DNA of 64,000 bases from Woeseiaceae bacterium (GTDB lineage: Bacteria; Pseudomonadota; Gammaproteobacteria; Steroidobacterales; Woeseiaceae): positions 21,741 through 85,740 of the forward strand of contig JAPKEL010000002.1 in the NCBI GenBank assembly GCA_028822065.1, read 5' to 3'. Each line of letters begins with the position of its first letter. The stretch's first letter is position 1. The notes beneath the pieces were generated by a model, which saw only the letters and a program-made list of their open reading frames with translations, searched no databases and was not told the DNA's origin. Positions 3,057 through 62,016 of the stretch are shown here, piece by piece. The translations under genes were made by a program, and so were the position numbers.

Positions 3057-3070
3057 CTAACCTCCATGAA

Positions 3071-4795: not shown

Positions 4796-4796
4796 T

Positions 4797-4893: not shown

Positions 4894-4906
4894 TTATCTT
4901 TTCCTC

Positions 4907-24969: not shown

Positions 24970-24980
24970 TTAGAAAAATT

Positions 24981-29774: not shown

Positions 29775-29901
29775 TATTTAAAAATTGCACTGTAAATAAA
29801 TTATACGTGTATTTTAATGCAACTATTTGTGTCATTTTATATCGATATTGTGTTTATATATCCCCTTAACAATATTATTACATCTTACTCAGAGACTTAA
29901 T

Positions 29902-42968: not shown

Positions 42969-43871
42969 TTAAATTATATCGGTGGTTATAATTTTCCACC
43001 CATCCTTTTGCTTGCGCCAATAAAGACGTCTCATTTTAATTTCAATAATATCGTTATATTTTATTTTCTGAGTGAAACGAGATAAAACTACATCCTCACG
43101 CGAAGGTTCTCCTATAATCATTAAATCTTCAATAATCATAGATTTATTTATTATTGATAAGTTATTAATGATGGAGTGCTCAGTCATTGGAATTACTGAG
43201 GGGTTCGGCTCATAAAAAGATAAAAACCTTTCCAGTTTTGATTCTTCAAAACTCCTCTTCCAGGCATCAAGAACTCCATGAATCTCATCACGGATTAGAG
43301 TAATTTCAGCAAGTGATTTCCAGTGTATTTTTTTAGTAATAATCACTGGAGTCACCATTAGAGCCAACGTACTTGATAACTGAATTATTTCCTTATTTGG
43401 TAACGCCAGACAACCATCAGTATCAAAGGGGGGACGTTTAAAAATATTTGGATTTGTCCCATGCAGCCAAATTCCATAACCCGTCTTATCATTATAACGA
43501 TCCCAAGCATTAGGATAATCCAATGGATAAGCGGCCGCACCATATTTCAATGGTAATTTAGACGCATCCAGTTTTTTTGTAATAAAATAAGTACCAATAG
43601 GAGTCTTTTTATCTCCTTGCTTCTGTTTTCCAGAACCCTTCAGTCCAATTGACATATAGGATTCATCACTTTTGATTAATTTTCTTTTGGCAACGGAATA
43701 ATGGATTAAAGTGGCATTTTCTGTATCAGCGATTAATACGCTCTCTATTGAATCAGGAATCTCAATAAGATACGCAGGAACAAGATCTTCTGCTTGTATA
43801 TTCGACAAAAAACCACTCTTCGTACACGCAAGTAAAACTATAAAAAGTAAATTTCTTAAAGAGCTTTGCAT
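42969..43871 (-). CDS. L,D-transpeptidase (YkuD) domain lipoprotein with a C-terminal NTF2-like extension
   Basis: 300 aa. Signal peptide and lipobox LLAC. YkuD catalytic region WLHGTNPNIFKRPPFDTDGCLALPN. The C-terminal ~120 aa end in RLYWRKQKDGWKIITTDII (NTF2/SnoaL-like, low certainty). There is a 1-nt TAATG overlap with the upstream gene. Confidence 0.78.
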   Translation of the reverse strand: MQSSLRNLLFIVLLACTKSGFLSNIQAEDLVPAYLIEIPDSIESVLIADTENATLIHYSVAKRKLIKSDESYMSIGLKGSGKQKQGDKKTPIGTYFITKKLDASKLPLKYGAAAYPLDYPNAWDRYNDKTGYGIWLHGTNPNIFKRPPFDTDGCLALPNKEIIQLSSTLALMVTPVIITKKIHWKSLAEITLIRDEIHGVLDAWKRSFEESKLERFLSFYEPNPSVIPMTEHSIINNLSIINKSMIIEDLMIIGEPSREDVVLSRFTQKIKYNDIIEIKMRRLYWRKQKDGWKIITTDII

Positions 43872-45958
43872 TAATTATCTTTTTTTCCACCAATCGCAAA
43901 TGCGTCTACAGCAATACATCCCAATTCATTAATGATCAAAGGATTGATATCCAATTCACTAATAACATCTCTTAACTCAAAAACCATATTTGAGAATTTC
44001 GCGGCAATAGAGCAAAAAGAATCTATATCATAAGATTTGGTCTCTCGATAACCCATTAAGCTTTCCTTTAATTTCAATTTATTTAGCAATTCTAACGCAT
44101 ATCTTTTACTAAATGGCGGCACCGCAAACACAATATCCCTCATTAGCTCTGAGTATATACCGCCCATACCGAGAACTACAATTGGGCCAAATTGAGAGTC
44201 ACATCGAACTCCTAATATCATTTCTTGCCCCGGTACCAGCATTTTAGCGATTAAAACATCGCCCCCAAGTTTTTTACCCATCTCTCTGTAAGCAGAAATT
44301 AACTCATCACCTGATTGAATATCCAAAATAACTCCATTGTTGTCGGATTTGTGATGTAACCCGGGCATTGCCGTTTTAAGAACCACAGGATAACCAATTT
44401 CAGACGCAGCATTCAGCAAATCATCCTCTGATGATACAACTTGATGTGAAACTACTGGAATGTCGAAATCTGCTATCAGATTCAGTGATTCATTTTCTGT
44501 CATCGCGCCCTTATTTTTAAGTATTAAACGCCAATGATTTACTAACTCAGAATCAATATCACTCTTTATAAAGATATCTCGCTTAACAGAATCTCTATAA
44601 GAAAATAATTTCTTTACCCCAATTAAGGTGGTAGTCACGCCATCTAAAACTGGATATCCTTCGTATGTTGCTTTAATTACATTATCATCCGTCCCTGTTC
44701 CTTGACGAGATGACACTAAAATAATGGGTTTATCATGCTTCGACTTAGCATTTTTCATATACTTAATATAATCCGAATAAATCATACCTTTTGGAGCTCG
44801 ATCTAATATTAACGCTCCTATAGAAGCATTAGGATCGCCCAGCATTATAGCGGCACATTTTGAATATTGACTGCCCGCATTAGGTCCACCTCGACTCCAA
44901 ACATCGAGTGGATTGATAGCGGGTAATTCAGGGTCCAGTATCTCTTTCAATTCCTGCACAGTATTTTTATCTAACACCGTTAAAGGAACTTCTGTTTCGT
45001 CTGCCAGATCAACCAGAAGCTGTCTCTCACCACCAGAATCATGCAATGTCACTAGCCCACCCGCGCCAATCAAACCAAATTCAGCGAATAATATAAGTGA
45101 AGTAGCCAATTCATCCATATCTCGAACACGTTGCACGCCATATTTATCAAATATGGCATCATAAGTATCATCATCCCCAGCCATAGCACCTGAATGCGAG
45201 AGTGTAAGCAGGGCAGATTCTTCTGTACGACCAACCTTTAAAGCTACTATTGGTATTTGTTTTGTTTTTGCCTTCTCAAGTGCCGCTACAAAACCTTCTG
45301 GGTTTCTAGCCGTCTCTATGAATAAACCTACAACTTTTGTTTCAGGTAAATCCAAAACAAAATCCAAGTACTGATCCATGGTTATCGATAATTCATTACC
45401 TGTAGAAACAGCAAAATTAAACCGTAATCTTGCTTCACAATCTAATATCCCAGACATACCAGCTCCAGAATGGCTAATTAAACTGACATTTCCAGGTGGA
45501 TTATGCGAGCTGCTATCAAAACCACATGCCCAAACATGATCTCGGATATTATAAAAACCCATACCATTAGCCCCACAGACTAAAATACCAGATTGTTGTA
45601 TTTTATCTTGTAGACGTGCTTTTAGAGGTGGATCGCTATCATCATCTATTATCAAAGATGAAAAAATAACCGCAGCTGGTATTTTCAGAGCAATAACTTC
45701 ATCCAGAACTGTCTCGACACTTTGGTCCCCAATAGCAAATATAGCAAGATCAGGTATCTCTGGTAAATTCAGAAGATTTTGATAGCAAGGCAGTCCTTGG
45801 ACTTTCTTGTAGGATGGATTAACCGGATAAATAGTTCCCTTGTAATCACCTTTGATGAGATTAAGCAACGCCCATTCACCAACCGAATCAGGTCGCTCTG
45901 AAGCTCCGATCAAGACTATAGATTTTGGTCTTAAAAGAGGGTCCAGATTATGTTGCAA
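43871..45958 (-). CDS. ADP-forming (NDP-forming) acyl-CoA synthetase, fused alpha/beta type
   Basis: 695 aa with a TTG start. CoA-binding N-terminus (PKSIVLIGASERPDSVG...VNP), a succinyl-CoA-synthetase-like ligase domain and a C-terminal ATP-grasp (GYPVVLKT...HKSDNNGV). Confidence 0.85.
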   Translation of the reverse strand: MQHNLDPLLRPKSIVLIGASERPDSVGEWALLNLIKGDYKGTIYPVNPSYKKVQGLPCYQNLLNLPEIPDLAIFAIGDQSVETVLDEVIALKIPAAVIFSSLIIDDDSDPPLKARLQDKIQQSGILVCGANGMGFYNIRDHVWACGFDSSSHNPPGNVSLISHSGAGMSGILDCEARLRFNFAVSTGNELSITMDQYLDFVLDLPETKVVGLFIETARNPEGFVAALEKAKTKQIPIVALKVGRTEESALLTLSHSGAMAGDDDTYDAIFDKYGVQRVRDMDELATSLILFAEFGLIGAGGLVTLHDSGGERQLLVDLADETEVPLTVLDKNTVQELKEILDPELPAINPLDVWSRGGPNAGSQYSKCAAIMLGDPNASIGALILDRAPKGMIYSDYIKYMKNAKSKHDKPIILVSSRQGTGTDDNVIKATYEGYPVLDGVTTTLIGVKKLFSYRDSVKRDIFIKSDIDSELVNHWRLILKNKGAMTENESLNLIADFDIPVVSHQVVSSEDDLLNAASEIGYPVVLKTAMPGLHHKSDNNGVILDIQSGDELISAYREMGKKLGGDVLIAKMLVPGQEMILGVRCDSQFGPIVVLGMGGIYSELMRDIVFAVPPFSKRYALELLNKLKLKESLMGYRETKSYDIDSFCSIAAKFSNMVFELRDVISELDINPLIINELGCIAVDAFAIGGKKDN

Positions 45959-45997
45959 TTTAGTGGGTTACCTGAAGAACGTATTATTTAAAAGGAT

Positions 45998-47194
45998 TTA
46001 AAATGGTGCCGGAGGAGTAGCGCCTCGTCTTGGTGGAAACCAAAAAGGTTTATCAACTACAGTTGCTTTTGCCATCACACGATTCCAATGCATTTCTCGT
46101 TGATAATAAACCTCAACCCAAACATTATCACCCGGTTTTCCATAAGGTGTACGTACTGTCCCAAGGGCAATATTTTGTTTACAGATAGGTGACCACGTTG
46201 CCGATGTAATAAAACCAATTTCTTCTGAATTATTTTTTTCTTGAGAGTAAATAAATGAATGGTCCGCAGTTTTATTACCTTCAATATCTAATTTAACTAA
46301 ACGCCAGTTTGAGCCTTCAGCTTTTTCCTTTAAGAGTGCTCTACGTCCATTAAAATTATCTTTATTAAAATCTACTAGCCATTCCATTCCAATTTCAAGC
46401 GGTGATCGAGTTCTGCCTGTTCTTACTGTGGTCTCTGCAGGCAAAAAATCTTCGAATGGTGCAAGATAGCCAGCCTCTTTTCGAGCAAGGTCTAATGCGT
46501 GCGTGCCAATAGCTTTAATACCATGTAATTTTCCTGCTTCAAACAAGGCATCCCAGAGATCTATAGCCTTATCTGGATCAATCCATAATTCATAACCAAG
46601 ATCACCGGTAAAACCTGTTCTGGATATCATCAGCTCCGTGTCAAAAATTTGATGGTGCATTAAGCCAAATGGTTTTAAGGCATCAAGACCATCTATCGCC
46701 ATATTCTTTAGCACGCTATAAGATGTTGGACCCTGCACTGCAAGTGCTGCTATTTCAACAGTTTCCTCTTTTATGGAAACATCAAATCCAATCGCAGCTG
46801 TTGTTAGCCATGCAAAGTGTCTTTCTTGTGAGCACAATCTATATTCGCCCTCACGCAAATGAAATATTGTGCCATCATCTATCACTTGCCCTTGATCATC
46901 ACACCAAATTGCATAAGCAACTCGTCCAGGCTTAATTTTTCTCATATCACGAGTAACGAGTCGATTAAGATAATCAAGCGCATCTGGTCCTGTGATACGG
47001 TATTTTGTCATGGGTGTTATATCGAATACACCCGTGGAATTTCTAATTGCAAAGTATTCCATATCTTCACAATAAAGAGCTTCGGGGCTGGAATAACCAG
47101 CCCAATTATGCCAAGTATTCAAGCAATCGAGTTCAGCTAAACGAGGATAAAAAGGAGTGCGTAATCTACCTGTATTTATTTTTACTGGAGTCAT
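45998..47194 (-). CDS. Aminomethyltransferase (GcvT) family folate-binding protein; substrate unknown
   Basis: 398 aa. RTPFYPR, EYFAIRNSTGVFDITPMTKYRITGPDA, AVQGP and ISRTGFTGDLGYELW are GcvT-fold patterns. There is a 1-nt overlap with the upstream gene. Confidence 0.82.
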   Translation of the reverse strand: MTPVKINTGRLRTPFYPRLAELDCLNTWHNWAGYSSPEALYCEDMEYFAIRNSTGVFDITPMTKYRITGPDALDYLNRLVTRDMRKIKPGRVAYAIWCDDQGQVIDDGTIFHLREGEYRLCSQERHFAWLTTAAIGFDVSIKEETVEIAALAVQGPTSYSVLKNMAIDGLDALKPFGLMHHQIFDTELMISRTGFTGDLGYELWIDPDKAIDLWDALFEAGKLHGIKAIGTHALDLARKEAGYLAPFEDFLPAETTVRTGRTRSPLEIGMEWLVDFNKDNFNGRRALLKEKAEGSNWRLVKLDIEGNKTADHSFIYSQEKNNSEEIGFITSATWSPICKQNIALGTVRTPYGKPGDNVWVEVYYQREMHWNRVMAKATVVDKPFWFPPRRGATPPAPF

Positions 47195-48741
47195 TATTTA
47201 TTCCCCTTCTTTAAAATTACCTGTGCAGCATTTCTCCCTGAGGCCCCGCTAATTCCTCCGCCAGGGTGTGAGCCTGCTCCGCACAAATACAGCCCATCGA
47301 TTGGCATCTGATACTGCGCCGAACCAGCCACAGGCCTAACAAACATAAACTGATCCAGAGTAAACTCACCATGATGCCAATGCCCACCGGTGATATGAAA
47401 CTCATTCTCCAGATCGACGGGCGTCAATAATTCCATAGCATGGATACAGCTTTCAATATCCGGCATATATTGCTTCAACACATTATAAATGGCGTTTTTA
47501 AAATTATTGCGCGCCTCTTCATTCCAGTCCGATTTGTGCTTATAAGGAGCATACTGAACAATTGCTGACATCACATGGCCGCCCGAGGGAGCCAAACTAT
47601 CATCATTAACACTAGGAAACGTAATTTCCATTATAGGTTGTGGAGAACTTTTCCTATATTTTGCTGGGTTAAACGCTTTTTCCACATAACTTTCATCTGG
47701 AGCAATTAGTATACGTTGACCATAATCAGCATCTGAGAAGCCTTTGATTGTGGGTAATTTATTTAGGGCAATATGCAGTTTTGCGGCATTTCCCTTCATG
47801 CGGATATTATCAACTCTGTGCGTGAATCGTGTCTCCACGTTGCGAGCTCCCACTAGTTCTAACATTGTTTTTTTAGGATCTGCATTTGAAACTACGATCT
47901 CACTGTTATAAACAGTACCATCGTTTAATTCAACACCTGTAGCGGCGCCTTTGGCTAATAATACTTTTTTTACTTGAGCATTTGTTTTAATTTCTACACC
48001 AGCAGCTTCTGCACAATCACTTAGAGCTTTTGAGACACTTCCCATTCCACCTTCGGGGAGAGAGATTTCTCCATGCTTACCAGCCATTCTATACAAATAG
48101 GTTAAAATGGTATTAGGTGATCGAGGTCCGAGATGTGTACCCAATACTGAATCTAAACTGAGACCACCTTTTAATAAAGGATTCTCGAAACGCTCATCCA
48201 ATTCATCATAGATATTCATACCTATTAGTCTTAAGAATTCACGCATTTCAACCTGACCCATTCTTCGAAGATCAAAACCAAGCATGGCAAGAGTGAATAA
48301 ATCTTTTTTATTTTTTGTGCCTAATCTTGGCGGGGCTTTATTCAGGTAGGGTTTTAATAAATCTGCAAACTTAGTCATTCGTTTAGTGAATTCTTCGAAG
48401 TTTTTTTGATCACTGTCATTGACACCCGTAACCTTACTTCCACAATAACTAACATGCTCACTGCCTTTTGATAAAACAATAGTCGACATATTTTTGCTTG
48501 CAAGCTTGAGATTTAAATTCAAATCTTTTTCAACTTGAGGTTGCAATTGATAAAGCAAATGGGCACAAGCCGATGCAGAATAACCTTCAGCAAATTCTCT
48601 AGTAATAGCTGCTCCACCAACTTGGTTATTTGCCTCCAAAACCAAGACTTTTTTCCCTGCTTTTGCCAGTAAAGCAGAACACACAAGACCATTGTGTCCT
48701 GCACCTATAACTATCGCATCGTATTTATCAATCATCGCCAA
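47194..48741 (-). CDS. CrtI/phytoene-desaturase-family FAD-dependent oxidoreductase (paralogue B)
   Basis: 515 aa. N-terminal YDAIVIGAGHNGLVCS dinucleotide fold. C-terminal GLYLCGAGSHPGGGISGASGRNAA. It overlaps paralogue A by 14 nt, or by 8 nt if the start is the ATG at 48735. Confidence 0.85.
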   Translation of the reverse strand: MAMIDKYDAIVIGAGHNGLVCSALLAKAGKKVLVLEANNQVGGAAITREFAEGYSASACAHLLYQLQPQVEKDLNLNLKLASKNMSTIVLSKGSEHVSYCGSKVTGVNDSDQKNFEEFTKRMTKFADLLKPYLNKAPPRLGTKNKKDLFTLAMLGFDLRRMGQVEMREFLRLIGMNIYDELDERFENPLLKGGLSLDSVLGTHLGPRSPNTILTYLYRMAGKHGEISLPEGGMGSVSKALSDCAEAAGVEIKTNAQVKKVLLAKGAATGVELNDGTVYNSEIVVSNADPKKTMLELVGARNVETRFTHRVDNIRMKGNAAKLHIALNKLPTIKGFSDADYGQRILIAPDESYVEKAFNPAKYRKSSPQPIMEITFPSVNDDSLAPSGGHVMSAIVQYAPYKHKSDWNEEARNNFKNAIYNVLKQYMPDIESCIHAMELLTPVDLENEFHITGGHWHHGEFTLDQFMFVRPVAGSAQYQMPIDGLYLCGAGSHPGGGISGASGRNAAQVILKKGNK

Positions 48742-50347
48742 AATTCTCAGGTACGGTATTTTTTAATTTTAAATCATAAAGTATTTCACGGGCCGCATTA
48801 GCTCCCGGTGCAGCCATAACTCCTCCACCAGGATGAGTACTAGAACCACACATATAAAGTCCATTAACAGGTGCACGATATTGAGCATACCCAGGTACAG
48901 GACGGTTAAATAAAAGCTGATCCATTGTTAATTCACCATGGAAAATATTTCCTTCTGTAATCCCTATTTGATCTTCAATATCTTGAGGAGTTCGTGTTTC
49001 AACATGTAGAATCAAATCTTTAAAATCAGGGCTATAATTTGATATCTGATCAATAACACTTTTAGTAAATCCATCTCTTTCTTCAGAAGTCCAAGCCCTA
49101 CCTTCAATTTGTGCTGGGCAGTACTGAACGAAACAACTCATAAAGTGTTTGCCTGGCGGTGTCATGGTTGGATCAACAGCACTGGGAATGGTGCAATCAA
49201 TATAAGGATCTTTTGACCATGTGCCATCTTTCCAGTCATCATATGCGAGCTCCATACGCTCCATCGAATCAATGAAATGCATATCTGCATTTCCAATTAA
49301 CTCACTACCTTTAGGTAAGGCAGGAAAAGTTGGCATGCCATCTAACGCAATATTTAACTTGCCCGAGGATCCCCTAATTTTAAAATTCTTAACTCGCTTA
49401 TAGAAATTCTCTGGGAGATCTTTTTCATCCATACAATTTAAAAATGTACGTTTTACGTCCATATTAGAAACGACTACAGGGGCATAAATTTCTTCACCAT
49501 TTTCAAGGGCAACACCTTTAACACGGTTATGTTTAACAATAATCTGATCCACACCGGCCTCTGACCTTACCTCTCCACCATAAGCCTGAACTGCTCCAGC
49601 GAGAGAATCAGAAACAGCACCCATACCTCCACGAGCAAATCCCCAGGTACCGACATTACCATCAACATCACCCATATAATGATGCAATAAAACGTACGCA
49701 GTTCCGGGCGAATGAATACCTAATGCAGTACCAATGATACCGCTGCCTGAGAAGGCAGTCTTGACCACATCTTTTTCAAAATATTCATCCAAATAATCCG
49801 CTACACTCATCGTCCAAAAACGAAGAGTCTCATATAAACGATCCTCACCTAACTCCAGAAATTTATTTCCTAGTAAAATTAATTCCTTAATATCTTTAGG
49901 CTTAAAAGAAGTTGGATCTGGTGCTGTTCTTAGTAAAAAATCTCGAATTAAACGACATTGGCGCATCGTATCCGTTGAATATCTTGTATATGCATCCGCA
50001 TCATGTTTTGAATGGCGAGCTATTTCACGATGCGCAGCTTCAGGGTCATGATATGACGCAAAATAATCACCATTTTCCATAAATTGAACCGAGCCACCAT
50101 AAGGGGTTACTTGAAGTCCATGCTTATGTAACTCAAGGTCTCTGTATATCTCTGGTCTAAGTAGGCTGCACACATAAGAACAATTTGAATACTTCCAATC
50201 CTTATATAACTCGCGACTTACCGCTGCGCCACCGATGTAATCATTTTTTTCTAAACAGACAACATTCAACCCTGCTTTAGCCAAAAATGCCGCATTTGCA
50301 AGGCCATTATGACCCGCACCAATTACTATTGCATCGTACTTTTTCAT
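48728..50347 (-). CDS. CrtI/phytoene-desaturase-family FAD-dependent oxidoreductase (paralogue A)
   Basis: 539 aa. YDAIVIGAGHNGLANA at the N-terminus and GLYMCGSSTHPGGGVMAAPGANAA at the C-terminus. Confidence 0.85.
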   Translation of the reverse strand: MKKYDAIVIGAGHNGLANAAFLAKAGLNVVCLEKNDYIGGAAVSRELYKDWKYSNCSYVCSLLRPEIYRDLELHKHGLQVTPYGGSVQFMENGDYFASYHDPEAAHREIARHSKHDADAYTRYSTDTMRQCRLIRDFLLRTAPDPTSFKPKDIKELILLGNKFLELGEDRLYETLRFWTMSVADYLDEYFEKDVVKTAFSGSGIIGTALGIHSPGTAYVLLHHYMGDVDGNVGTWGFARGGMGAVSDSLAGAVQAYGGEVRSEAGVDQIIVKHNRVKGVALENGEEIYAPVVVSNMDVKRTFLNCMDEKDLPENFYKRVKNFKIRGSSGKLNIALDGMPTFPALPKGSELIGNADMHFIDSMERMELAYDDWKDGTWSKDPYIDCTIPSAVDPTMTPPGKHFMSCFVQYCPAQIEGRAWTSEERDGFTKSVIDQISNYSPDFKDLILHVETRTPQDIEDQIGITEGNIFHGELTMDQLLFNRPVPGYAQYRAPVNGLYMCGSSTHPGGGVMAAPGANAAREILYDLKLKNTVPENFGDD

Positions 50348-50368
50348 ATATTCATATCACTCTATGAT

Positions 50369-51682
50369 TCATACTCTTATTTTGTTACTTGTAATGTCTA
50401 CTGCTTCTTCAAATTTGTCCAGAGTTTCTTGTAAGCATTTCATATCATGAGATTCAGAGAGAAACCATGGCTCCCTCGAATCAGGCTCAACCAAAATCCC
50501 AAGATCATGTAGGTTTGGTGCTAATGCATCATAAAAATCGTAATTTGAGTTTAGCCAGCCCCGATAATCATTAGGCACCTCGTCTGCAAAGAATAACCCC
50601 ATCATTGAAGGGTGACCAGAATAATTATGAGAAATATCTCTTTCTGTTAAAATCTTACTCATTCCTTGTTGTAATTTTAAACCGTAATTTTCTATATCCT
50701 TTAACGCATTAGTTTCATCTAGTATTTCGAGTGTCTTGGCGGCTGCAGAAAGTGAAACAGAATGACCGGTAAAAGTCCCTCCATGCACCACTCCATCTCC
50801 GCTTACGCAGCGCATAATATCTTCACGACCAGCGATTGCTGAAATTGGATAACCATTACCCATAGCTTTAGCAAAAGTACAAAGATCTGCTGTTACTCCA
50901 TAAAGTTCCTGCGCGCCACCTTTGGCGACTCTAAATCCCGTTTTTACTTCGTCGATAATTAATAAAATGTCATATTTAGTACATAAGGAACGGATATCTG
51001 TCATGTATTGCTGGTTAGCACTTATACTGCAACAATTTCCCATTATTGGCTCAACTAGAAATGCGCCAATATCATCACCGGATTTTTTAAATAGCTCTTC
51101 TATAGCATTAGCATCATTTATTGGGGCGGTATAATTGAGTTTTTTTGTTATTTTTGGAATTCCATCTCCATATGGCAATAGCTCTGGATCACCATTACTT
51201 GGATCCCAATCTTCAATTTCCGAATACCACATAACCTCACTAAAAACTCCATGGTAACCGCCCTCTAAAATGACATGGCCATCTTTTCCGGTGAAGGCTC
51301 TAGCAATGCGTAATGCCGCCATAACTGCTTCAGTTCCAGAATTTGAAAAACGGACTAATTCGGCCGCTTTAACCATGCCACTTATTCGTGCTGCGATTTC
51401 GTATTCTAGTTCCGTGGCTAATGCAAATACGCCTCCAATATTCATACCATCTTTAGCTGCTTGATCGACTCTTTGATCGGCATACCCTAAAATAATTGGG
51501 CCATAGGCCAGACGATAATCAATGTATTCATTATCGTCCAAATCCCATAACCGTGCGCCTTTACCACGTTTTATATATAAGGTTTTATCTTCACCCCAAT
51601 AGCGGAAGTTAGATGAAACACCCAAGGGTAGTTTTGTAATTGCTTTTTCAAACTGAGCATTGGAATTATTCAATTTACGCAT
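50369..51682 (-). CDS. Class III PLP aminotransferase (glutamate-1-semialdehyde aminomutase-like)
   Basis: 437 aa. NSGTEAVMAALRIARAFTG and the LIIDEVKTGFRV PLP-lysine region. Confidence 0.85.
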   Translation of the reverse strand: MRKLNNSNAQFEKAITKLPLGVSSNFRYWGEDKTLYIKRGKGARLWDLDDNEYIDYRLAYGPIILGYADQRVDQAAKDGMNIGGVFALATELEYEIAARISGMVKAAELVRFSNSGTEAVMAALRIARAFTGKDGHVILEGGYHGVFSEVMWYSEIEDWDPSNGDPELLPYGDGIPKITKKLNYTAPINDANAIEELFKKSGDDIGAFLVEPIMGNCCSISANQQYMTDIRSLCTKYDILLIIDEVKTGFRVAKGGAQELYGVTADLCTFAKAMGNGYPISAIAGREDIMRCVSGDGVVHGGTFTGHSVSLSAAAKTLEILDETNALKDIENYGLKLQQGMSKILTERDISHNYSGHPSMMGLFFADEVPNDYRGWLNSNYDFYDALAPNLHDLGILVEPDSREPWFLSESHDMKCLQETLDKFEEAVDITSNKIRV

Positions 51683-51690
51683 ATAATTTT

Positions 51691-52851
51691 TTACATTCCA
51701 TCTAAGCCACGTTTTTTTAGTGAGCGTGCAATAATTAATTTTTGAATTTCACTGGTTCCTTCCCAAATACGATCGCAACGCAATTCACGGAAGAATCGTT
51801 CAGCAACATTTTCACGCATATAACCACGGCCGCCAAATATCTGTACAGCTCTATCTGCGATACGATTTGCGGCTTCAGAGACAAATAACTTAACCATTGA
51901 ACAACGGTTATGTAAAATTTTTACATCCATGCCATCGTCATCCGCTGCCGCGGCTTCGAATGTCATTAATCGTGCCGCCCAAAGCTCTGTAGCGCTGTCT
52001 GCCAACATAAACTGTATCGCTTGTTTCTCGCTTAAAGGCGCGCCATCAACAATCCTATCATCAGCAAATTGTTTTGCCTCTTCTATTAGTCTCGCTGCTG
52101 CACCGCAGCTCCTGGCTCCAATCATAAGTCGCTCATGCCTGAACCAACTGTGTGTATAAGACATTCCATCACCGACTTTTCCAACTCGTTGTTGCTCACT
52201 CACCTGAACATCATTAAATTGATATGTTGGATGATGAGCCGCATAAGTATGACTAAAAAGCGGTGAGGCAATCATCTCTATACCTGCAGTATTCTTATCT
52301 ACCAAGAATAATGCGTCTTCATCTTCATCTGGCAAATAAGCCTGAAACCAAAAAAAATCGGCCAGATTAGCACTGGTTACAAACCACTTTTCACCGTTCA
52401 ATACATAACCATTATTGTTTTTTATCGCTGTAGCCTCGAGATTTGCTACATCAGAACCAGAGCCAGATTCAGTAATAGCATAACAATCTTTTCTTAAACC
52501 TTGCACCATAGGTAAAATATATTCTTCAATTTGCTGCTCAGAACAAGCCGCAAACATCCAAGATTGCGCTTCAGGAAAACACCAAGATAAAGCATTCGTC
52601 ACTCTTCCTAATTGCTCCCAAATGGCAACTTGTTCAACCATAGAAAGCTCCAAACCACCATATTTTTTAGGTACATCAATAGCAGTAAAACCAAGCTCAA
52701 CAGCACGTTTTTTATTACGTTGTGTGATCTCCTGTGGGAGCTCACCATTATTTAATTCGGCTTCAACCTCGTGAGGTTGGAGAAAGTTATCCGCGTAATC
52801 TCGAGCAGTTTTTTGCCACTTTATTGTATTTTTATCTAATGTGACTTCCAT
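51691..52851 (-). CDS. Acyl-CoA dehydrogenase
   Basis: 386 aa. ITESGSGSDVANL, and QIFGGRGYMRENVAERFFRELRCDRIWEGTSEIQ (catalytic Glu region). Confidence 0.88.
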   Translation of the reverse strand: MEVTLDKNTIKWQKTARDYADNFLQPHEVEAELNNGELPQEITQRNKKRAVELGFTAIDVPKKYGGLELSMVEQVAIWEQLGRVTNALSWCFPEAQSWMFAACSEQQIEEYILPMVQGLRKDCYAITESGSGSDVANLEATAIKNNNGYVLNGEKWFVTSANLADFFWFQAYLPDEDEDALFLVDKNTAGIEMIASPLFSHTYAAHHPTYQFNDVQVSEQQRVGKVGDGMSYTHSWFRHERLMIGARSCGAAARLIEEAKQFADDRIVDGAPLSEKQAIQFMLADSATELWAARLMTFEAAAADDDGMDVKILHNRCSMVKLFVSEAANRIADRAVQIFGGRGYMRENVAERFFRELRCDRIWEGTSEIQKLIIARSLKKRGLDGM

Positions 52852-52854
52852 GTT

Positions 52855-54069
52855 TTATGCCGATATTTTCTCGGTCAACTCTTTCAATATCCATTGAATA
52901 TAGACGCTCTCAGCATCTTCCATGCCAGAAAAAGGACCCGGTCTATAATATCTTGATGCAACACCCTTGCGGTTATTTTCAATTATCATTTTATCGGCCT
53001 CTGTTGTAATGTCCCACAACCACATCAGCTGTTCTTTATCATAGTCCTTACCATCTTCTGCATCATTTCTTACGAGCCAATAGATTTCACATTCACTCTT
53101 ATCTATATCCACTGGTGTAAATACATAAGCAACAACATGATCACTATAAGCAAGGAGAAAAGTAAAAGGGCCAAGAGCAAAATCAGACGCTCCGCCATCA
53201 TAATCTTTAAGCTTTCCTAATAAAGGCGCAATTGGCTTTCCATTCTTACTGCCCGTTTTGTAACCTTCAAATAGAGCAGTCCTACTATAGCCATAACCCT
53301 GCTCCCCTTCAGGTGCTTTAATATCAATATAATCAATTTCAATATCTTTTAATCCACAATGTCCCATTTTTTCAATCATGTGGCCTTGAACTCGGTCCCG
53401 CTTGGTATCATCAAGCGTCAGTGTATGCATCTTAGCGTAATCTGGGTGAGCGTTAGCACAGTGATAACATTCCTGATAATTTTCAATCGATAATTTCCAA
53501 TTAGCATCAATAGGGTAAGTTTTTTGGGCCGCTACTTTAAGATTTTCAAAATCAAACATCGCCATCGGTTCTTTCAAGTCCCTCTTTGCACCAGCTAATG
53601 AAGGTGGCGAATCAGAGAAACAAACAAAAATCATTCCATGCAAAACATCAATAGAAAGTTGATGAAGGCTATAATCAGCTTTATCGAAATCACTGGGCAT
53701 ATTTCGAGCCGCAATTAATTTTCCATCTATATTGTAAACCCAACCATGGTATGGGCATTTAAATTTACGTGTTGAACCTTGCTTTTCCAAACAAACTAAA
53801 GAACCGCGATGCCGGCAAACGTTTGCAAATGCATTTAAAGTACCTTCTTTTGAGCGAATGATAATTGCTGATTCATTCGCAACATTCAAAACCTTAAAAT
53901 CACCAGATTCTGGAATTTGGGACTCATGACCAGCAAATATCCAGTTTTGTGTAATCAGATGGTCTAATTCCAATTGATAAATTTCCGGATCGGTATAAAA
54001 CCTCTGGTCAAGTGACCAGCCAGGTTTTTGGGATGCAATTAAATCTTTAATATCGAGTTTCTGATTCAT
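52855..54069 (-). CDS. Rieske [2Fe-2S] non-haem-iron oxygenase, alpha subunit (GbcA/Stc2-like subtype suspected)
   Basis: 404 aa. Rieske motif CRHRGSLVC...CPYHGWVY. Mononuclear iron region ENYQECYHCANAHPD. No partner reductase or beta subunit lies adjacent. Confidence 0.85.
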   Translation of the reverse strand: MNQKLDIKDLIASQKPGWSLDQRFYTDPEIYQLELDHLITQNWIFAGHESQIPESGDFKVLNVANESAIIIRSKEGTLNAFANVCRHRGSLVCLEKQGSTRKFKCPYHGWVYNIDGKLIAARNMPSDFDKADYSLHQLSIDVLHGMIFVCFSDSPPSLAGAKRDLKEPMAMFDFENLKVAAQKTYPIDANWKLSIENYQECYHCANAHPDYAKMHTLTLDDTKRDRVQGHMIEKMGHCGLKDIEIDYIDIKAPEGEQGYGYSRTALFEGYKTGSKNGKPIAPLLGKLKDYDGGASDFALGPFTFLLAYSDHVVAYVFTPVDIDKSECEIYWLVRNDAEDGKDYDKEQLMWLWDITTEADKMIIENNRKGVASRYYRPGPFSGMEDAESVYIQWILKELTEKISA

Positions 54070-54272
54070 AATTTGCCGATCACATTTGTACCTAGTTCAT
54101 GGAGTTTGAATACCTTGATAGTTTACCCTTTCCTCGATACATAAGGTTAGAAAAAATTTCGTATTATGAAATAATTCTTTGCTTTTAATTGTACATACTC
54201 TTCCACCGTCAGAATATTATGCTAAGTTAGTAAAATTTATAAGTTGATCAATAGTAAATCGCGGAGCGATAG

Positions 54273-55859
54273 ATGAAAAAAATTATAATTATGTGTTTAT
54301 TGATCATGCCCATTATTGGTTGCGAACAGGATCCAAGTGTTTTTGTTAATAATCAAACTTTAATTGGAAAATTTCACGCTGATACAAATATTTCAGCTTT
54401 CCTTGGCATTCCATTTGCTGAGCCGCCATTAGATGATTTGAGATGGCATAAACCCATACCTTTTGAACCGAGAAATTCAATACGTAAAACACAACAATTT
54501 GCCCCAGCTTGCATGCAAAAAATGGGTATTCTTGAGTGGTATCGAGATTTGGCTGAAATATTTGTTAATAACAGAAATGTTGTTCCCGATCTCTCAATTA
54601 ATGAAGATTGCTTATACTTAAATATTTGGACACCCGCTTTAAATAATACAGCCAATTTACCTGTAATGGTTTATATTCATGGAGGGAGTAATGATAGTGG
54701 TTGGGCTTTTGAGCCAAATTATCATGGCCATGCTCTGGCACAAAAAGATGTGGTTGTGGTTAGTATTGCCTATCGTTTAGGTGGCTTTGGTTTTCTCTCG
54801 CACCCAGACATAGAAAATTCAGACGCATTAGCAAATTTCGGTTTATGGGATCAGGTAGCTGGGCTTCAATGGATCAAAAAGAATATTAATCAATTTGGTG
54901 GAAATCCCAATATGGTTACTGCTTTTGGCGAATCAGCTGGAGCTCAAGATATTTTGGCATTGATGTTTGCAGCTCCTGCAAAAGGACTGTTTCATCAAGC
55001 TATCCTCCAAAGCAATGCTGGCTTTGGTTTGCCTGAAGAAACGGATGGCACAGGGCATGTTAAATCCAGTATCGACAATGAGCAGGCACGCGGTATAGCG
55101 CTTGCAAAAGCTCTCAGTGAGAATGATGCGCCATTACCTCTTGATGCACTGAGAAAGGTGCCAGCGACTAAGATTTTAGATACCTATCAAAAGACTTTTC
55201 CAAATTACTATCACTCACCAGCGGTAGATGGACAACTGATCAACACATCAACGTGGGTAGATATACAAAAAACTAACTTAGCTAGTATGAAGGTTATTAT
55301 CGGCTCTAATGCTGATGAATATTATGCGAATACCCCAGAAGACGTTAGTAAAGAGATGATACAAGATACAGCTAAAATATTATATAAATCAGATAGCGCT
55401 AGTGCTCTAGAAGCAGTTATCGATGAATCAGATACAAGGAATGCACTTGACCGATTGTATTCAGCTGAGGGCATGCTCTGTCCATCACAAACCTTAGCTG
55501 AGAGAATAACTGAAGACCAAGGCAAAAGCTGGGTGTATTATTTTAATCGGGTTCGAGATGGGAAGGCGGCTATGCATCCTATGATTAGGGCTTATCATGG
55601 TGCAGAATTACCTTATGTCTTCAATACTCATGATAGCTGGATGAATACGAGTGCCCTGGATATTGAAATAACAAATATATTGACCGACTATTGGACAAAT
55701 TTCGCAAAAACTGGTGATCCAAATGCTCAAGGCATACCCAATTGGTCAATGTTTGATAAAAATGAAAAACTTGTACAAAGTTTCGGTAATACGATCCAAA
55801 CAATTCCTTCGACTGAGCCTATACTATGTAAATTATTTTCAAATAGAGTTAGTCAATAA
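54273..55859 (+). CDS. Type B carboxylesterase/lipase, lipoprotein
   Basis: 528 aa. Lipobox PIIGC. EDCLYLNIW, HGG and the active-site FGESAGA motif. Confidence 0.88.
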   Translation: MKKIIIMCLLIMPIIGCEQDPSVFVNNQTLIGKFHADTNISAFLGIPFAEPPLDDLRWHKPIPFEPRNSIRKTQQFAPACMQKMGILEWYRDLAEIFVNNRNVVPDLSINEDCLYLNIWTPALNNTANLPVMVYIHGGSNDSGWAFEPNYHGHALAQKDVVVVSIAYRLGGFGFLSHPDIENSDALANFGLWDQVAGLQWIKKNINQFGGNPNMVTAFGESAGAQDILALMFAAPAKGLFHQAILQSNAGFGLPEETDGTGHVKSSIDNEQARGIALAKALSENDAPLPLDALRKVPATKILDTYQKTFPNYYHSPAVDGQLINTSTWVDIQKTNLASMKVIIGSNADEYYANTPEDVSKEMIQDTAKILYKSDSASALEAVIDESDTRNALDRLYSAEGMLCPSQTLAERITEDQGKSWVYYFNRVRDGKAAMHPMIRAYHGAELPYVFNTHDSWMNTSALDIEITNILTDYWTNFAKTGDPNAQGIPNWSMFDKNEKLVQSFGNTIQTIPSTEPILCKLFSNRVSQ

Positions 55860-58756: not shown

Positions 58757-60520
58757 TTATAATTTACCTTGAATGACTTCCCCTGCAATTAATACCGCTG
58801 TTGGAGTTGTTTTAGAAATATCATAACGACTTACATCAAATATATTTTGGTCAAGCACAACTAGATCAGCTTCCTTTCCAACCTCAATACTTCCAAGACT
58901 ATCTTCATAACGAAGTTGGTAAGCACCGCCTTGTGTGTAACCATTTACAATATCTTCCAAAGCAAGTCGCTCACTTATTGGAGATAAAATTTCTGAACTA
59001 GGTGCAGCGCCAACTTCTTGACGATTGTGCCCAATTTGCATGCTAAAAAATGGGCTAGTTCGATACAAGCGTGTCATACCTGTTGTATCACTTGAATAAC
59101 TCACAGTGGCTCCATCATCAATTAATGCTTGGATACTAAATCTTCTGGCAGCTCTCTCTGCCCCGATTGGTTTTTTCCAACCGGTAAGATATCCAAAGCC
59201 ATTCCAGTGAAGTGTAAAATTAGCTGGAACATCAAGCTCACGAAATCTTGAAATATCATCTTCATGGATTAACTCCAGATGACATGTGCTTATTCTTGTG
59301 TCCAATCTTCCACCAATAATGCTTCTTGCTTTTTCAACAGCATTAAGAGCTATATGAGCAGATCGCTCGCTATTAGTATGAAGATGAAGGTCTATCTTTT
59401 CTTTATGTAATTCGAGAATAAAATCAGTTAATACTTCACCTGAAAATATAGTGTTACCCCTATTCTTTGGATCATCAGAATATGGTTCAAAAATAGCTGA
59501 TGTTCTAACTTCATGAACGCCATCATAATGAATTTTTATAGTATTAAATTTCAACCTATCACCCGAATACTCTGATCTCAGTCGTTTTAATTCTGAGATT
59601 GCAATTGGAACTTGATCGGGCAACCGAATATGGTAAGTTCCCTCATACCTTAATGGGAGACGTCCTGTGTCATCGAGTTTCTTTACAGCGGCATAAACTT
59701 TATCCTCCGCACCTGAATTCCCACCATCATAGAGTAGAGTAACTCCATATTTTGACAGATGACCCAATACCTTATAAAGATTCTCAACCAGTTGAGGTTG
59801 ATCTGGTGCCATATAATCTCGTTCACTAAACCATGGCATCACGGCCGCTTCTTTTATCCATCCAGCCGGTTCTCCATCTGGTTTTCTTGAAAAAATATTA
59901 ACTCCTGGTGAAGGATCTGGCGTGTTTTTATCAATCCCAAATTTTCTAAAGAAGGCAGAATTGACCCATTTACTATGCCCGGTATCATCTAAAAGATATA
60001 CTGGGCGTTCAGGAACCACTTGATCAAGATCTTCTTTTTTTGGTCCATCCAATCCAAATATATCTACCTGCCATACACCTGCCACAATCATTTCAAGTTC
60101 GGGATTATCTTTAGCATATTTTTCTAGCCAAACAAGTATTTCTTGCTTGCTAGCCGGGTACGGCATATTTGGATATCCAGATTTTTTTGTGGCATCGTAA
60201 TTGTCCCTAATTGCAATTGAGCCTGGATGAGTGTGGGCATCGATGATCCCTGGCAAGACCATTGCATTATTTAGATTATGCTTTTTGGTATTTTGGCCAA
60301 TAAACTGACCAATATCTTTATTCTTTCCGACGAAAATAAATTTACCATTTTTAATGGCAATAGATTCTACCCATGGTTGATTATCATTTACAGTATATAT
60401 TTTGCCATTAGTTAGAACTATATCAGCACTATTATCTGAGGCTCCACAGGAATACAGAAATAAAATAGATATAAGTAAAATAAGAAAACGAAGTGATTTT
60501 ATGATCTCCATATAGATCAT
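58757..60520 (-). CDS. YtcJ-like metal-dependent amidohydrolase (Amidohydro_3 type), lipoprotein
   Basis: 587 aa. Lipobox LFLYSC. GIIDAHTHPG metal motif, a LHLHTNSERS region and a C-terminal GSIEVGKEADLVVLD. Confidence 0.82.
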   Translation of the reverse strand: MIYMEIIKSLRFLILLISILFLYSCGASDNSADIVLTNGKIYTVNDNQPWVESIAIKNGKFIFVGKNKDIGQFIGQNTKKHNLNNAMVLPGIIDAHTHPGSIAIRDNYDATKKSGYPNMPYPASKQEILVWLEKYAKDNPELEMIVAGVWQVDIFGLDGPKKEDLDQVVPERPVYLLDDTGHSKWVNSAFFRKFGIDKNTPDPSPGVNIFSRKPDGEPAGWIKEAAVMPWFSERDYMAPDQPQLVENLYKVLGHLSKYGVTLLYDGGNSGAEDKVYAAVKKLDDTGRLPLRYEGTYHIRLPDQVPIAISELKRLRSEYSGDRLKFNTIKIHYDGVHEVRTSAIFEPYSDDPKNRGNTIFSGEVLTDFILELHKEKIDLHLHTNSERSAHIALNAVEKARSIIGGRLDTRISTCHLELIHEDDISRFRELDVPANFTLHWNGFGYLTGWKKPIGAERAARRFSIQALIDDGATVSYSSDTTGMTRLYRTSPFFSMQIGHNRQEVGAAPSSEILSPISERLALEDIVNGYTQGGAYQLRYEDSLGSIEVGKEADLVVLDQNIFDVSRYDISKTTPTAVLIAGEVIQGKL

Positions 60521-60534
60521 AATATATTCAGATA

Positions 60535-61995
60535 TTAAAGCTTAATGCAAATATTTGTTAATTCAGAATAAAATTCTAAGGAATGCAAACCGCCTTCACG
60601 CCCAATCCCAGAAAGTTTAATTCCACCGAATGGAGTTCTCAAATCCCTTAAAAACCAAGTATTAACCCATACCACACCAACCTCTAATTGCCGTGAGACA
60701 CGATGAGCTCTTTTGATATCCTTAGTCCAGACAGCAGCGGCTAAGCCATATTTACTATTATTCACTTTCTCGACTACTTCTTTTTCTGAATCAAAAGAAC
60801 TAATGTGGCAAACTGGCCCGAATACCTCTTGTTTGACCATGTCTGCTTCCTCTGAAAGTCCAGTAAATATGGTCGGCTGTACCCACGATCCTTTTTTTCT
60901 CGAATCTGTAAATTCTGGCACTCTGCCACCAGTGACTAAATTACCACCCTCTTCTAAGGCCTTTGTAAAGCAGGCCAAAACTTTTATTCGATGTTCTTGA
61001 GAAATTAATGGACCTAATTCTGCCGATTGACCTTCAGGCCAATTCTCAATTAAAGCTTCGGCGCGTATTTTTAACTCTGAAACAAATTTCTCATACATTG
61101 ATTCATGAACGTAAACTCTCTCTGAACACAAGCAAACTTGACCGCAATTAGAAAATACTGATCTAACTGTACCCTCAATAGCAGCATCAAAATCTGCATC
61201 ATCAAATACGATGGCAGCATTCTTTCCTCCTAACTCGAAAGAAACTGATTTAACGTCATCTGCTGCCACTTTCATAATCTCTGAGCCAGTTGCCGATTCA
61301 CCCGTAAATGTAATCGCATCAATATCTTCATGTTTTGTTAGATACTCGCCTGTGGAGCCAGGGCCAAAACCATGCAATAAATTAAATACCCCAGATGGTA
61401 AGCCAACTTCATGAATAACCTCCGCCAATAAGGATGCACTTCCGGGCGTTTCTTCTGATGGTTTGGCAATAACACAATTGCCCATGGCTAATGCAGGTGC
61501 GAGTTTCCAAGTTAAAAGTAATAAAGGTAGATTCCACGGGGCAATAACTGCAATAACGCCCATGGGTTTCCTAACTGCATAATTTAACGCCCCAGATCCA
61601 TCAGGAGTATCCATCTCGAAACACTCAGTACTGACCGTTCTAGCTAAATCGGAGAAAAATCTAAAATTCTCCGCCCCACGAGGAATATCAATCGCTCTTG
61701 CATGTGATTGAGGTTTACCTGTATCAGCAATTTCTGCATCAACAAAATCATCAAAACGCGCCTCAATTCCATCTGCGATTCGTCGAAGTAATTTACAACG
61801 CTCTACTAAAGATAGTTTTCCCCATTCTCCCTTTAATGCCATCTTTGCTGCTACTACAGCTTTTCCTACCATCAACTTGTCAGCTTCAGCCACCCTGGCA
61901 ACCAAAGACCCATCAACAGGGTTAATATCGTCAAAAAGACGATCAGATGAAATAAATTCACCAGCTATATAATTTTTATAAATCTTTGATGTCAT
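60535..61995 (-). CDS. NAD(P)+ aldehyde dehydrogenase (hydroxy-/aminomuconic semialdehyde dehydrogenase-like)
   Basis: 486 aa. EIADTGKPQSHARAIDIPRGAENFRFF, FELGGKNA (catalytic Glu) and SNCGQVCLCSERVYV (catalytic Cys). No signal peptide. Confidence 0.88.
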   Translation of the reverse strand: MTSKIYKNYIAGEFISSDRLFDDINPVDGSLVARVAEADKLMVGKAVVAAKMALKGEWGKLSLVERCKLLRRIADGIEARFDDFVDAEIADTGKPQSHARAIDIPRGAENFRFFSDLARTVSTECFEMDTPDGSGALNYAVRKPMGVIAVIAPWNLPLLLLTWKLAPALAMGNCVIAKPSEETPGSASLLAEVIHEVGLPSGVFNLLHGFGPGSTGEYLTKHEDIDAITFTGESATGSEIMKVAADDVKSVSFELGGKNAAIVFDDADFDAAIEGTVRSVFSNCGQVCLCSERVYVHESMYEKFVSELKIRAEALIENWPEGQSAELGPLISQEHRIKVLACFTKALEEGGNLVTGGRVPEFTDSRKKGSWVQPTIFTGLSEEADMVKQEVFGPVCHISSFDSEKEVVEKVNNSKYGLAAAVWTKDIKRAHRVSRQLEVGVVWVNTWFLRDLRTPFGGIKLSGIGREGGLHSLEFYSELTNICIKL

Positions 61996-62016
61996 AAAAT
62001 TCTAATTAATTGTTCC

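Follow-up and report, generated by a model that had tools for sequence, protein, structure and literature searches.

Heterotetrameric sarcosine oxidase (SoxBDAG) and the dimethylglycine and sarcosine dehydrogenases use a flavoprotein to oxidize an N-methyl group and a GcvT-like folate domain to capture the one-carbon unit as 5,10-methylene-tetrahydrofolate (5,10-methylene-THF). A stretch of 64,000 nucleotides from a Woeseiaceae bacterium (assembly GCA_028822065.1, contig JAPKEL010000002.1, positions 21,741 to 85,740; called the window below) carries a seven-gene, minus-strand operon which may encode a counterpart of these enzymes. Its core consists of two flavoproteins of the CrtI/CrtO fold, labelled FlvA and FlvB in this analysis, and of a GcvT-family folate-binding protein; the three are referred to as the triad. 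Sequence comparison suggests that FlvA-FlvB-GcvT is most likely a new folate-coupled N-demethylase made of three proteins, and that the operon, on balance, serves the catabolism of an N-methylated di/polyamine-like organic cation. The same genes recur in other genomes, whose loci are called the relatives.

The proposed triad reaction is that of SoxBDAG and of the dimethylglycine dehydrogenases. PurU (formyl-THF deformylase) is also often encoded nearby, and SoxA joins a second Rossmann-type module to its GcvT-like part, as FlvB and GcvT would do together. However, the flavoproteins of the operon have the CrtI/CrtO fold and not the DAO fold, they are a pair of full-length paralogues, the GcvT part is a polypeptide of its own, gamma and delta subunits are missing, and the scores against the soxA and soxB models are far under cut-off (22 bits for soxB). 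From sequences and models, the triad thus appears to be an analogue, and not a member, of the sarcosine oxidase/dimethylglycine dehydrogenase type.

The other products of the operon also have described counterparts. The fused ADP-forming acyl-CoA synthetase ("the ligase") shares with DddX (PDB 7CM9), a lyase of dimethylsulfoniopropionate (DMSP), the fused domain order, the phosphohistidine and a tryptophan that contacts the onium group, but it sits in a cluster of FlvA, FlvB, GcvT and PotF-like proteins, whereas the context of DddX is BCCT-DddB-DddC. The Rieske oxygenase is an alpha-only enzyme with the same metal motifs as Stc2 and GbcA/BmoA; unlike these, it has no adjacent reductase gene and is associated with a polyamine-type importer. 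The DmdA-DmdB-DmdC-DmdD pathway likewise combines a GcvT-family enzyme, a CoA ligase, an acyl-CoA dehydrogenase (ACAD) and an enoyl-CoA hydratase (here found in relatives) on a 3-substituted propionate, but DmdB is AMP-forming, DmdC is a long FadE-type ACAD, and the operon adds two flavoproteins, a Rieske oxygenase and a transaminase. With polyamine catabolism (Puu, Pau and Spu), the relatives share a PotF-like importer, a PuuA-like ligase of the glutamine synthetase (GS) type, PuuB-like and PuuC-like proteins and a SpuC-like omega-transaminase; yet all these Puu- and Spu-like proteins are under their equivalog cut-offs, none is encoded in the window, and the canonical routes have no folate protein, Rieske oxygenase or CoA branch. 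Finally, FlvA and FlvB share the fold of CrtI, CrtD and CrtO (TM 0.75–0.81 to 4REP) and the FAD-binding motifs, but they are only 16–19% identical to them, are under the family cut-offs and are obligatorily paired with a folate protein.

By analogy, the operon thus resembles folate-coupled betaine N-demethylation, and its CoA branch resembles the DMSP (Dmd/DddX) or crotonobetaine routes. It belongs to none of the named families: none of the seven proteins reaches a named equivalog cut-off of NCBIfam, including those of glycine betaine, carnitine, DMSP, sarcosine and carotenoid enzymes. The original prediction, which had called the cluster distinct from the known gene sets, is borne out by this assignment to subfamilies with hidden Markov models. 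A literature search found no description of the gene set, with incomplete coverage of subscription journals, so that an earlier description is possible.

Gene order and conservation

The ORF listing gives eight co-directional open reading frames on the minus strand across positions 42969–54069; nine had been announced, in a list which itself names eight. The gaps of 3, 8, 21 and 39 nt and the three start/stop overlaps are reproduced exactly from the coordinates, and the predicted domains are all found, the Pfam matches of the eight proteins exceeding the gathering thresholds. The features are:

52855..54069, minus: Rieske non-haem-iron oxygenase alpha subunit, 404 aa, first gene of the operon, of the Stc2/GbcA-like N-demethylase type
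51691..52851, minus: ACAD, 386 aa, of a divergent subfamily (Pfam Acyl-CoA_dh_N/M/1)
50369..51682, minus: class-III pyridoxal-phosphate aminotransferase, 437 aa, of the GntE/HemL-like amine/aldehyde transaminase branch (Pfam Aminotran_3)
48728..50347, minus: FlvA, FAD flavoprotein of the CrtI/CrtO fold, 539 aa (Pfam DAO/NAD_binding_8/Amino_oxidase)
47194..48741, minus: FlvB, FAD flavoprotein of the CrtI/CrtO fold and paralogue of FlvA, 513–515 aa (Pfam Amino_oxidase/NAD_binding_8)
45998..47194, minus: GcvT-family folate-binding protein, 398 aa, third member of the triad (Pfam GCV_T and GCV_T_C)
43871..45958, minus: fused ADP-forming acyl-CoA synthetase, 695 aa, DddX-like, last gene of the conserved set (Pfam CoA_binding_2, Succ_CoA_lig, ATP-grasp_5)
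42969..43871, minus: YkuD L,D-transpeptidase lipoprotein, 300 aa, co-directional neighbor outside the pathway (Pfam YkuD and a lipobox)
54070..54272, no strand: 203-bp intergenic stretch between the operon and a divergent carboxylesterase gene, the presumed promoter region

The L,D-transpeptidase, which has a lipobox signal peptide, had been counted as a member of the cluster. In the relatives it stays with a flank of DsbA, cytochrome c and EngB genes, either apart from the ligase gene or at loci without one (L018, L043). It is a bystander that belongs to this housekeeping flank, and the operon therefore consists of seven genes, which are closely packed into a single unit: the Rieske and ACAD genes stand head-to-tail ahead of the transaminase gene, the start of FlvB overlaps the stop of FlvA, and the start of GcvT overlaps the stop of FlvB by 1 nt. 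The only sizeable non-coding stretch adjoining the operon is 54070..54272. A consensus scan gave as many promoter-like and terminator-like matches as shuffled controls, with no excess, and neither tRNAs nor Rfam elements were found in the window. The G+C content is 0.34–0.41.

As had been noticed, no regulator, transporter or Rieske reductase is encoded in the cluster, and this holds for the whole window; it does not hold for the family, as most relatives carry a TetR regulator and a PotF-type importer, and in one of them (L011) a small flavin reductase is encoded upstream. The window copy is a compacted, streamlined version of the gene set of its relatives, without regulator or transporter.

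The conservation of the neighborhood was surveyed with 35 loci retrieved from species-representative genomes using FlvA as query, to which were added four annotated alphaproteobacterial plasmid loci with the triad and three contigs reached via the ligase. The window proteins were mapped onto these loci with tblastn and all neighbors were clustered. The counts on the 28 loci of at least 18 kb are:

FlvA-FlvB-GcvT triad: 25–28 of 28
Rieske oxygenase near the triad: 19 of 28 by tblastn, and three more loci by annotation
Class-III aminotransferase: 20 of 28
TetR regulator: 20 of 28
PotF-type ATP-binding cassette (ABC) transporter: 14–17 of 28
ACAD orthologue: 10 of 28
Ligase orthologue: 8 of 28
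GS-like ligase: 7 of 28

The carriers are Woeseiaceae, Halieaceae, one Curvivirga metagenome-assembled genome (MAG), Rhizobiaceae (Rhizobium, Shinella and Ensifer) and the Roseobacter group (Parasedimentitalea, Leisingera, Fuscovulum and Sulfitobacter). The closest genome is an uncultured Woeseiaceae MAG (L014), whose FlvA is 93% identical and whose synteny is complete, flanks included. Many ocean metagenome contigs, among them Tara and Arctic samples, carry FlvA in an identical neighborhood, and the exact FlvA protein of the window is present in dozens of ocean metagenome assemblies.

The typical Woeseiaceae layout has two divergent operons, permease-permease-ATPase-binding protein-ACAD-TetR and transaminase-FlvA-FlvB-GcvT-ligase, the latter sometimes followed by an aldehyde dehydrogenase (ALDH), with the Rieske gene beyond the transporter. 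On the alphaproteobacterial plasmids, the triad comes with a TetR regulator, a transaminase, a polyamine ABC transporter and between one and three Rieske genes; the ACAD and the ADP-forming ligase also join the core in Woeseiaceae and Halieaceae. Ligase orthologues (about 57% identity) that were sampled independently of the triad stand directly after GcvT in all three cases. These genes are found together again and again across families and classes, even where rearrangements have taken place, so that their grouping is far beyond chance. The prediction of a real, conserved catabolic cluster therefore stands, and non-conservation in relatives is refuted. The genes flanking the operon (the carboxylesterase, XylB, XylA, two Amidohydro_3 proteins and an ALDH of the 2-hydroxymuconic-semialdehyde-dehydrogenase family) are conserved only in L014, and for this reason they were excluded as members of the system.

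The FlvA-FlvB-GcvT triad

FlvA is the most conserved member of the triad. Among more than 8000 homologues, the best 120 are 79–93% identical to it, and identity remains 60–64% between classes (Alphaproteobacteria). In a library clustered at 50%, only about five clusters, of the 2080 below 1e-30, reach at least 50% identity. FlvA paralogues of 34–39% identity are found on plasmids of Agrobacterium, Sphingobium and Paracoccus aminophilus; they are solitary, with neither FlvB nor GcvT, and offer no hint of a function. The triad is therefore a specific orthogroup, because the paralogues at or below 40% identity stand alone.

FlvA and FlvB are about 33% identical, and both have an N-terminal FAD dinucleotide motif (DAIVIGAGHNGL). 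Public annotation names FlvA "NAD(P)/FAD-dependent oxidoreductase" or "phytoene desaturase family protein", and the RefSeq names of the triad are generic. The NCBIfam scores are far from those of carotenoid enzymes: against CrtO, FlvA and FlvB score 275 and 241 (cut-off 1000), and against crtI_fam 127 and 143 (cut-off 238). The only full-length solved relatives of the two proteins are CrtI and gamma-carotene desaturase, at 64–81 bits; for FlvA, these are 4dgk (CrtI, 67 bits) and 4rep (64 bits), which are followed by weak partial matches. The AlphaFold2 model of FlvA (pLDDT 78, pTM 0.84) has the three-domain fold of the CrtI-type flavoproteins. Its best Foldseek match is 4REP (TM 0.75/0.81), and flavin amine oxidases come next, with TM of about 0.5–0.6. 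No carotenoid biosynthesis genes were found in the window or in 40 related loci. A carotenoid function of FlvA and FlvB was thus rejected, as the family cut-offs are missed and there are no crt genes nearby.

The folate domains of the GcvT-family protein are full length (195 bits to PF01571, 43 bits to PF08669), and its PDB matches are T-protein (163 bits) and Tdm (151 bits). It misses the equivalog cut-offs of GcvT (187.5 vs 235.85), PRK00389 (233 vs 300) and DmdA (136 vs 410) and is also under that of SoxA; for Tdm, the match is confined to the C-terminal half (238, cut-off 1100).

A possible coupling of the flavoproteins to GcvT is read from gene order. FlvB always comes directly after FlvA in the relatives, GcvT follows FlvB in 27 of the 28 long loci, and the two genes are invariantly adjacent with a start/stop overlap. 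An apparent 912-aa FlvB-GcvT fusion in a 232-kb metagenome contig (L056, 7247–9985) was discarded as a frameshift artefact. Translation of the junction shows that the last ~35 residues of FlvB are out of frame and that the conserved GLYLCGAGxHPGGG motif, the C-terminal FAD motif, is lost; hence the fusion results from an assembly indel. This case is a warning against inference from gene fusions in long-read assemblies.

Partner enzymes and accessory genes

The Rieske protein (Pfam Rieske and Ring_hydroxyl_A) is an alpha-only oxygenase whose iron motifs are CxH-x17-CxxH at residue 85 and E..H....H (the 2-His-1-carboxylate) at residue 200. Its best NCBIfam model is GbcA, with 315 bits for a cut-off of 670, and its nearest solved structures are the stachydrine demethylase Stc2 (3vca, 247 bits) and CntA (134 bits). 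These scores indicate that it is related to GbcA but belongs to a separate subfamily.

The transaminase scores 452 bits against GntE (cut-off 525), the aldehyde/amine transaminase of guanitoxin biosynthesis; its nearest PDB entries are glutamate-1-semialdehyde aminomutases (about 242 bits). In Woeseiaceae and Fuscovulum, the gene just upstream of FlvA encodes an orthologue of this GntE/HemL-like enzyme. In Halieaceae, Rhizobiaceae and Roseobacters, the same slot is occupied by an unrelated class-III omega-transaminase of the PRK07036 type, and while one or the other type is present in 20 of the 28 loci, the two are never found together. The presence of two unrelated transaminases in one slot is a case of non-orthologous displacement, and the transamination step is therefore integral to the pathway.

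The best NCBIfam matches of the ACAD are the acryloyl-CoA reductase AcrC (201 bits) and CaiA (172 bits), all under cut-off, and its only PDB match below 1e-50 is the caffeyl-CoA reductase CarC. Its nearest named relatives are thus the enoyl-CoA reductases AcrC, CarC and CaiA. ACAD orthologues that are 59–91% identical lie beside the triad, usually in a divergent TetR-ACAD-binding protein-ABC operon.

The best solved relative of the ligase is the DMSP lyase DddX (7cm9, 276 bits over the full length), before a 4-hydroxybutyrate-CoA ligase (245 bits). It has the single-chain architecture of ADP-forming synthetases, with CoA-binding, succinyl-CoA-ligase-like flavodoxin and ATP-grasp domains in the same order as in DddX. 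The name given before, ADP-forming acyl-CoA synthetase, is corrected here: the protein is specifically DddX-like. In DddX, the residues defined are the phosphohistidine His292, Trp391, which makes a cation-pi contact to the sulfonium, and the proposed base Glu432 (PMC8163506). The equivalent of His292 (the His of SHSGAMAGD, in the swinging loop) and that of Trp391 (in NPLDxW) are both invariant in nine ligase orthologues of the cluster, and the 4-hydroxybutyrate-CoA ligase has Val at the position of Trp391. The conserved Trp suggests that the ligase substrate is a cationic carboxylate. Tyr181 of DddX is replaced by Phe and Asp208 by Ser. Since Glu432 is not kept and its genomic context is another, the ligase was not assigned to DddX.

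In most relatives, these genes are accompanied by a BetI-type TetR repressor and by an ABC importer for polyamines that is PotF-like. The C-terminal domain of the regulator is of the BetI type, and in some cases the protein is fused to GNAT. The binding protein of the importer scores about 314 bits to E. coli PotF. The putrescine-binding residues of PotF are kept (W37, D39, Y40, W244, D247, D278 and Y314), with E185 replaced by Asp. Some relatives also encode a protein like the gamma-glutamylputrescine synthetase, which is the GS-like protein mentioned above, a PuuC-like ALDH, a PuuB-like oxidase and an enoyl-CoA hydratase; others encode a protein of the histone deacetylase family, which is acetylpolyamine-amidohydrolase-like, a GNAT protein and PurU, or a 680-aa flavoprotein resembling amine dehydrogenases of the old yellow enzyme type. 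The GS-like protein scores 224 (cut-off 650) and the PuuC-like protein 545 (cut-off 850). A named equivalog cut-off is reached only by PurU and by neighbors outside the set (XylB, XylA and an ALDH). Orthologues of PuuA, PuuB, PuuC and PuuD are all absent from the window.

Some of the related loci have further neighbors. On a plasmid of Rhizobium sp. SL42 (L049, 6239–10751), genes similar to the moc genes of rhizopine catabolism lie just upstream of the TetR gene and the triad; they encode a fatty-acid-desaturase-like MocD, the ferredoxin MocE, an FAD oxidoreductase and IolG, and purU is at the edge of the locus. On a Fuscovulum ytuae plasmid (L050, 24647–25498), a gene annotated as belonging to a DMSP lyase family follows the polyamine-type ABC transporter of the triad cluster, and is itself followed by amidohydrolase and methyltransferase genes; it is possible that it links the island to sulfonium or other onium compounds. 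In the Halieaceae, the triad loci have a conserved sulfotransferase-like protein of 662 aa which adjoins the ABC transporter (cluster c14).

A proposed route and its rivals

The pathway that we favor would start with the import of an N-methylated polyamine-like cation, in relatives by the PotF-like system. The Stc2/GbcA-like Rieske oxygenase would strip a methyl group off the quaternary or tertiary nitrogen as formaldehyde, and FlvA-FlvB, as a heteromer of CrtI-fold flavoproteins, would oxidize the remaining N-methyl groups. The translationally coupled GcvT-like protein would capture the one-carbon unit as 5,10-methylene-THF, so that the triad would do the work of heterotetrameric sarcosine oxidase or dimethylglycine dehydrogenase, as a functional analogue with another flavoprotein fold. 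The class-III transaminase would then convert the terminal primary amine to an aldehyde, which an ALDH encoded elsewhere in the genome would oxidize to a cationic omega-ammonio carboxylate. The DddX-like ligase would convert this carboxylate to its CoA thioester and may, like DddX acting on DMSP, catalyze an elimination as well, here of the amine; the ACAD, together with a hydratase in the relatives, would act on the resulting acyl-CoA thioester. The chemistry implied by the original prediction (N-demethylation with transfer of the one-carbon unit to folate, removal of an amino group, activation with CoA and desaturation) agrees with the subfamilies: the proximity of the Rieske protein to Stc2, the full-length folate domains of GcvT and the presence of PurU in some relatives are consistent with the proposed demethylation, and the cation-pi Trp of the ligase agrees with the later steps. 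The substrate that had been suggested, a methylated amino-carboxylate or osmolyte, now seems less likely than a di/polyamine-like cation. The compound probably enters in the latter form, because the importer of the relatives is PotF-like, with putrescine-binding residues, and because their accessory genes are of the polyamine type. The substrate is narrowed no further than to an N-methylated di/polyamine-like cation or its omega-ammonio acid. A bolder version, to which we give little credence, is that the triad is an unrecognized class of three-component, THF-coupled amine N-demethylases and that its island is the route, so far missing, by which bacteria break down N-methylated polyamines, for instance the long-chain polyamines of the N-methyl-propyleneimine type in diatom silica. 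Such chains would undergo cycles of demethylation, terminal transamination and oxidation to an N-substituted beta-alanine, followed by DddX-like CoA activation with beta-elimination of acryloyl-CoA, and the cycle would be repeated on the shortened chain.

Several points weigh against the catabolism of an N-methylated polyamine. All seven genes of the operon are known from computation alone. To our knowledge, the CrtI-fold enzymes catalyze C–C desaturation, isomerization and ketolation of lipophilic substrates, and not N-demethylation; an amine-oxidase role is assigned to FlvA-FlvB because of the invariant GcvT partner and of superfamily membership, and for no other reason. BetI-type regulators and Stc2-like oxygenases are typical of betaine, not polyamine, catabolism. 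A PuuC-type ALDH and a hydratase are absent from the window, as are the transporter, the regulator and the Rieske reductase, and part of the pathway is therefore borrowed from the relatives. The ligase and the ACAD are found in only about one third of the triad loci, so that they may form a lineage-specific branch and not the core route. In the ligase, the position of Glu432 is occupied by Tyr in a gapped region, and the orthologues keep I-Y-x-x-Y, with no Glu. This lowers the case for DddX membership, but lyase chemistry is still possible, since a DddX-like enzyme verified as functional also lacks Glu432 (PMC13543886).

Some of these points lead to another reading, tentative and rather unlikely in our opinion, in which the operon degrades a betaine-type osmolyte, which would be a methylated omega-amino-carboxylate (examples are gamma-butyrobetaine, beta-alanine betaine and a DMSP-like zwitterion). 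Demethylation would be stepwise, by the Rieske oxygenase and then by FlvA-FlvB-GcvT, the freed omega-amino acid would be transaminated, and the DddX-like ligase and the ACAD would form a CoA branch as in carnitine/crotonobetaine or DMSP metabolism. The BetI-type C-terminal domain of the regulators fits such a substrate, as do the proximity of the Rieske protein to the stachydrine and glycine-betaine demethylases, that of the ligase to DddX with its cation-pi Trp, the partial similarity of the ACAD to CaiA and AcrC, and the DMSP-lyase-family gene downstream of the Fuscovulum cluster. Yet the conserved importer is PotF-like, with both of the acidic clusters for the two amino groups of putrescine, and not of the ProX/OpuAC or BCCT type; the accessory genes (GS-like ligase, PuuC-like ALDH, histone-deacetylase-like amidohydrolase, GNAT) are of the polyamine type, and the betaine, carnitine and DMSP equivalog cut-offs are all missed by wide margins. 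The same importer, GS-like ligase, PuuC-like ALDH and amidohydrolase, with the omega-transaminase and the PuuB-like oxidase, would also suit the ordinary catabolism of unmethylated putrescine, spermidine or norspermidine. In this reading FlvA-FlvB would cleave a secondary amine as a polyamine dehydrogenase (the fold of FlvA is related to that of putrescine and monoamine oxidases), and the GcvT-like protein would serve some purpose besides the capture of one-carbon units, which would not be its task. We consider this quite improbable: it leaves unexplained the invariant, coupled GcvT gene, the Stc2-like oxygenases (up to three per locus) and PurU, and the known Puu, Pau and Spu routes need no GcvT, Rieske oxygenase or PurU. 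As for a fortuitous juxtaposition or a carotenoid-modifying locus, the genome is indeed compact and gene-dense, and the public "phytoene desaturase" annotation of FlvA points that way, but the neighborhood is conserved across two classes despite rearrangements, there are no carotenoid genes nearby and the scores are well under the crtI_fam and CrtO cut-offs. The synteny survey largely refutes this explanation, which has next to no likelihood left.

Other parts of the window also deserve mention. The divergent gene which faces the operon over the 203-bp stretch (54273–55859, plus strand) encodes a type-B carboxylesterase (COesterase, 528 aa) with no NCBIfam match, which may release the substrate from an ester. 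Farther on (58757–63774, minus strand), two Amidohydro_3 proteins of 587 and 585 aa, with no NCBIfam match, flank an ALDH which is above the cut-off for 2-hydroxymuconic semialdehyde dehydrogenase. A complete mevalonate-pathway island, in a gammaproteobacterium, lies at 23485–30789 and encodes HMG-CoA synthase, a NUDIX protein (possibly IDI-like), a 753-aa fusion of HMG-CoA reductase with a GHMP kinase, which is unusual, a second GHMP kinase, diphosphomevalonate decarboxylase and a polyprenyl synthetase. At 2001–6718 (minus strand), a 2-oxoacid:ferredoxin oxidoreductase pair of 574 aa (POR and POR_N) and 351 aa (TPP_enzyme_C) adjoins a 603-aa protein with Fer4_20, Pyr_redox_2 and Fer4 domains; these are enzymes of an oxygen-sensitive type in a presumably aerobic pelagic bacterium. 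The 607-aa protein at 32328–34151 fuses Dak2, a FakA-like middle domain and DegV, that is, the fatty-acid kinase subunits A and B in one chain. A Sulfotransfer_5-domain protein (15439–16164, 241 aa) adjoins a class-IV aminotransferase.

Few heterotrophs of marine sediments and coastal waters are as abundant as Woeseiaceae, Halieaceae and the Roseobacter group. The hypothesis of a folate-coupled demethylase is directly testable, because cultured carriers of the triad exist (Shinella zoogloeoides ATCC 19623, Parasedimentitalea marina W43 and Seongchinamella marina IMCC8485). The DddX branch of the ADP-forming ligases would extend beyond DMSP. If the triad is such a demethylase, it would be a new enzyme architecture in the cycling of one-carbon units and methylated amines, a widespread mis-annotation as carotenoid enzymes would be corrected, and the finding would point to an unaccounted pool of methylated polyamine-like nitrogen that is used by marine and rhizosphere bacteria.

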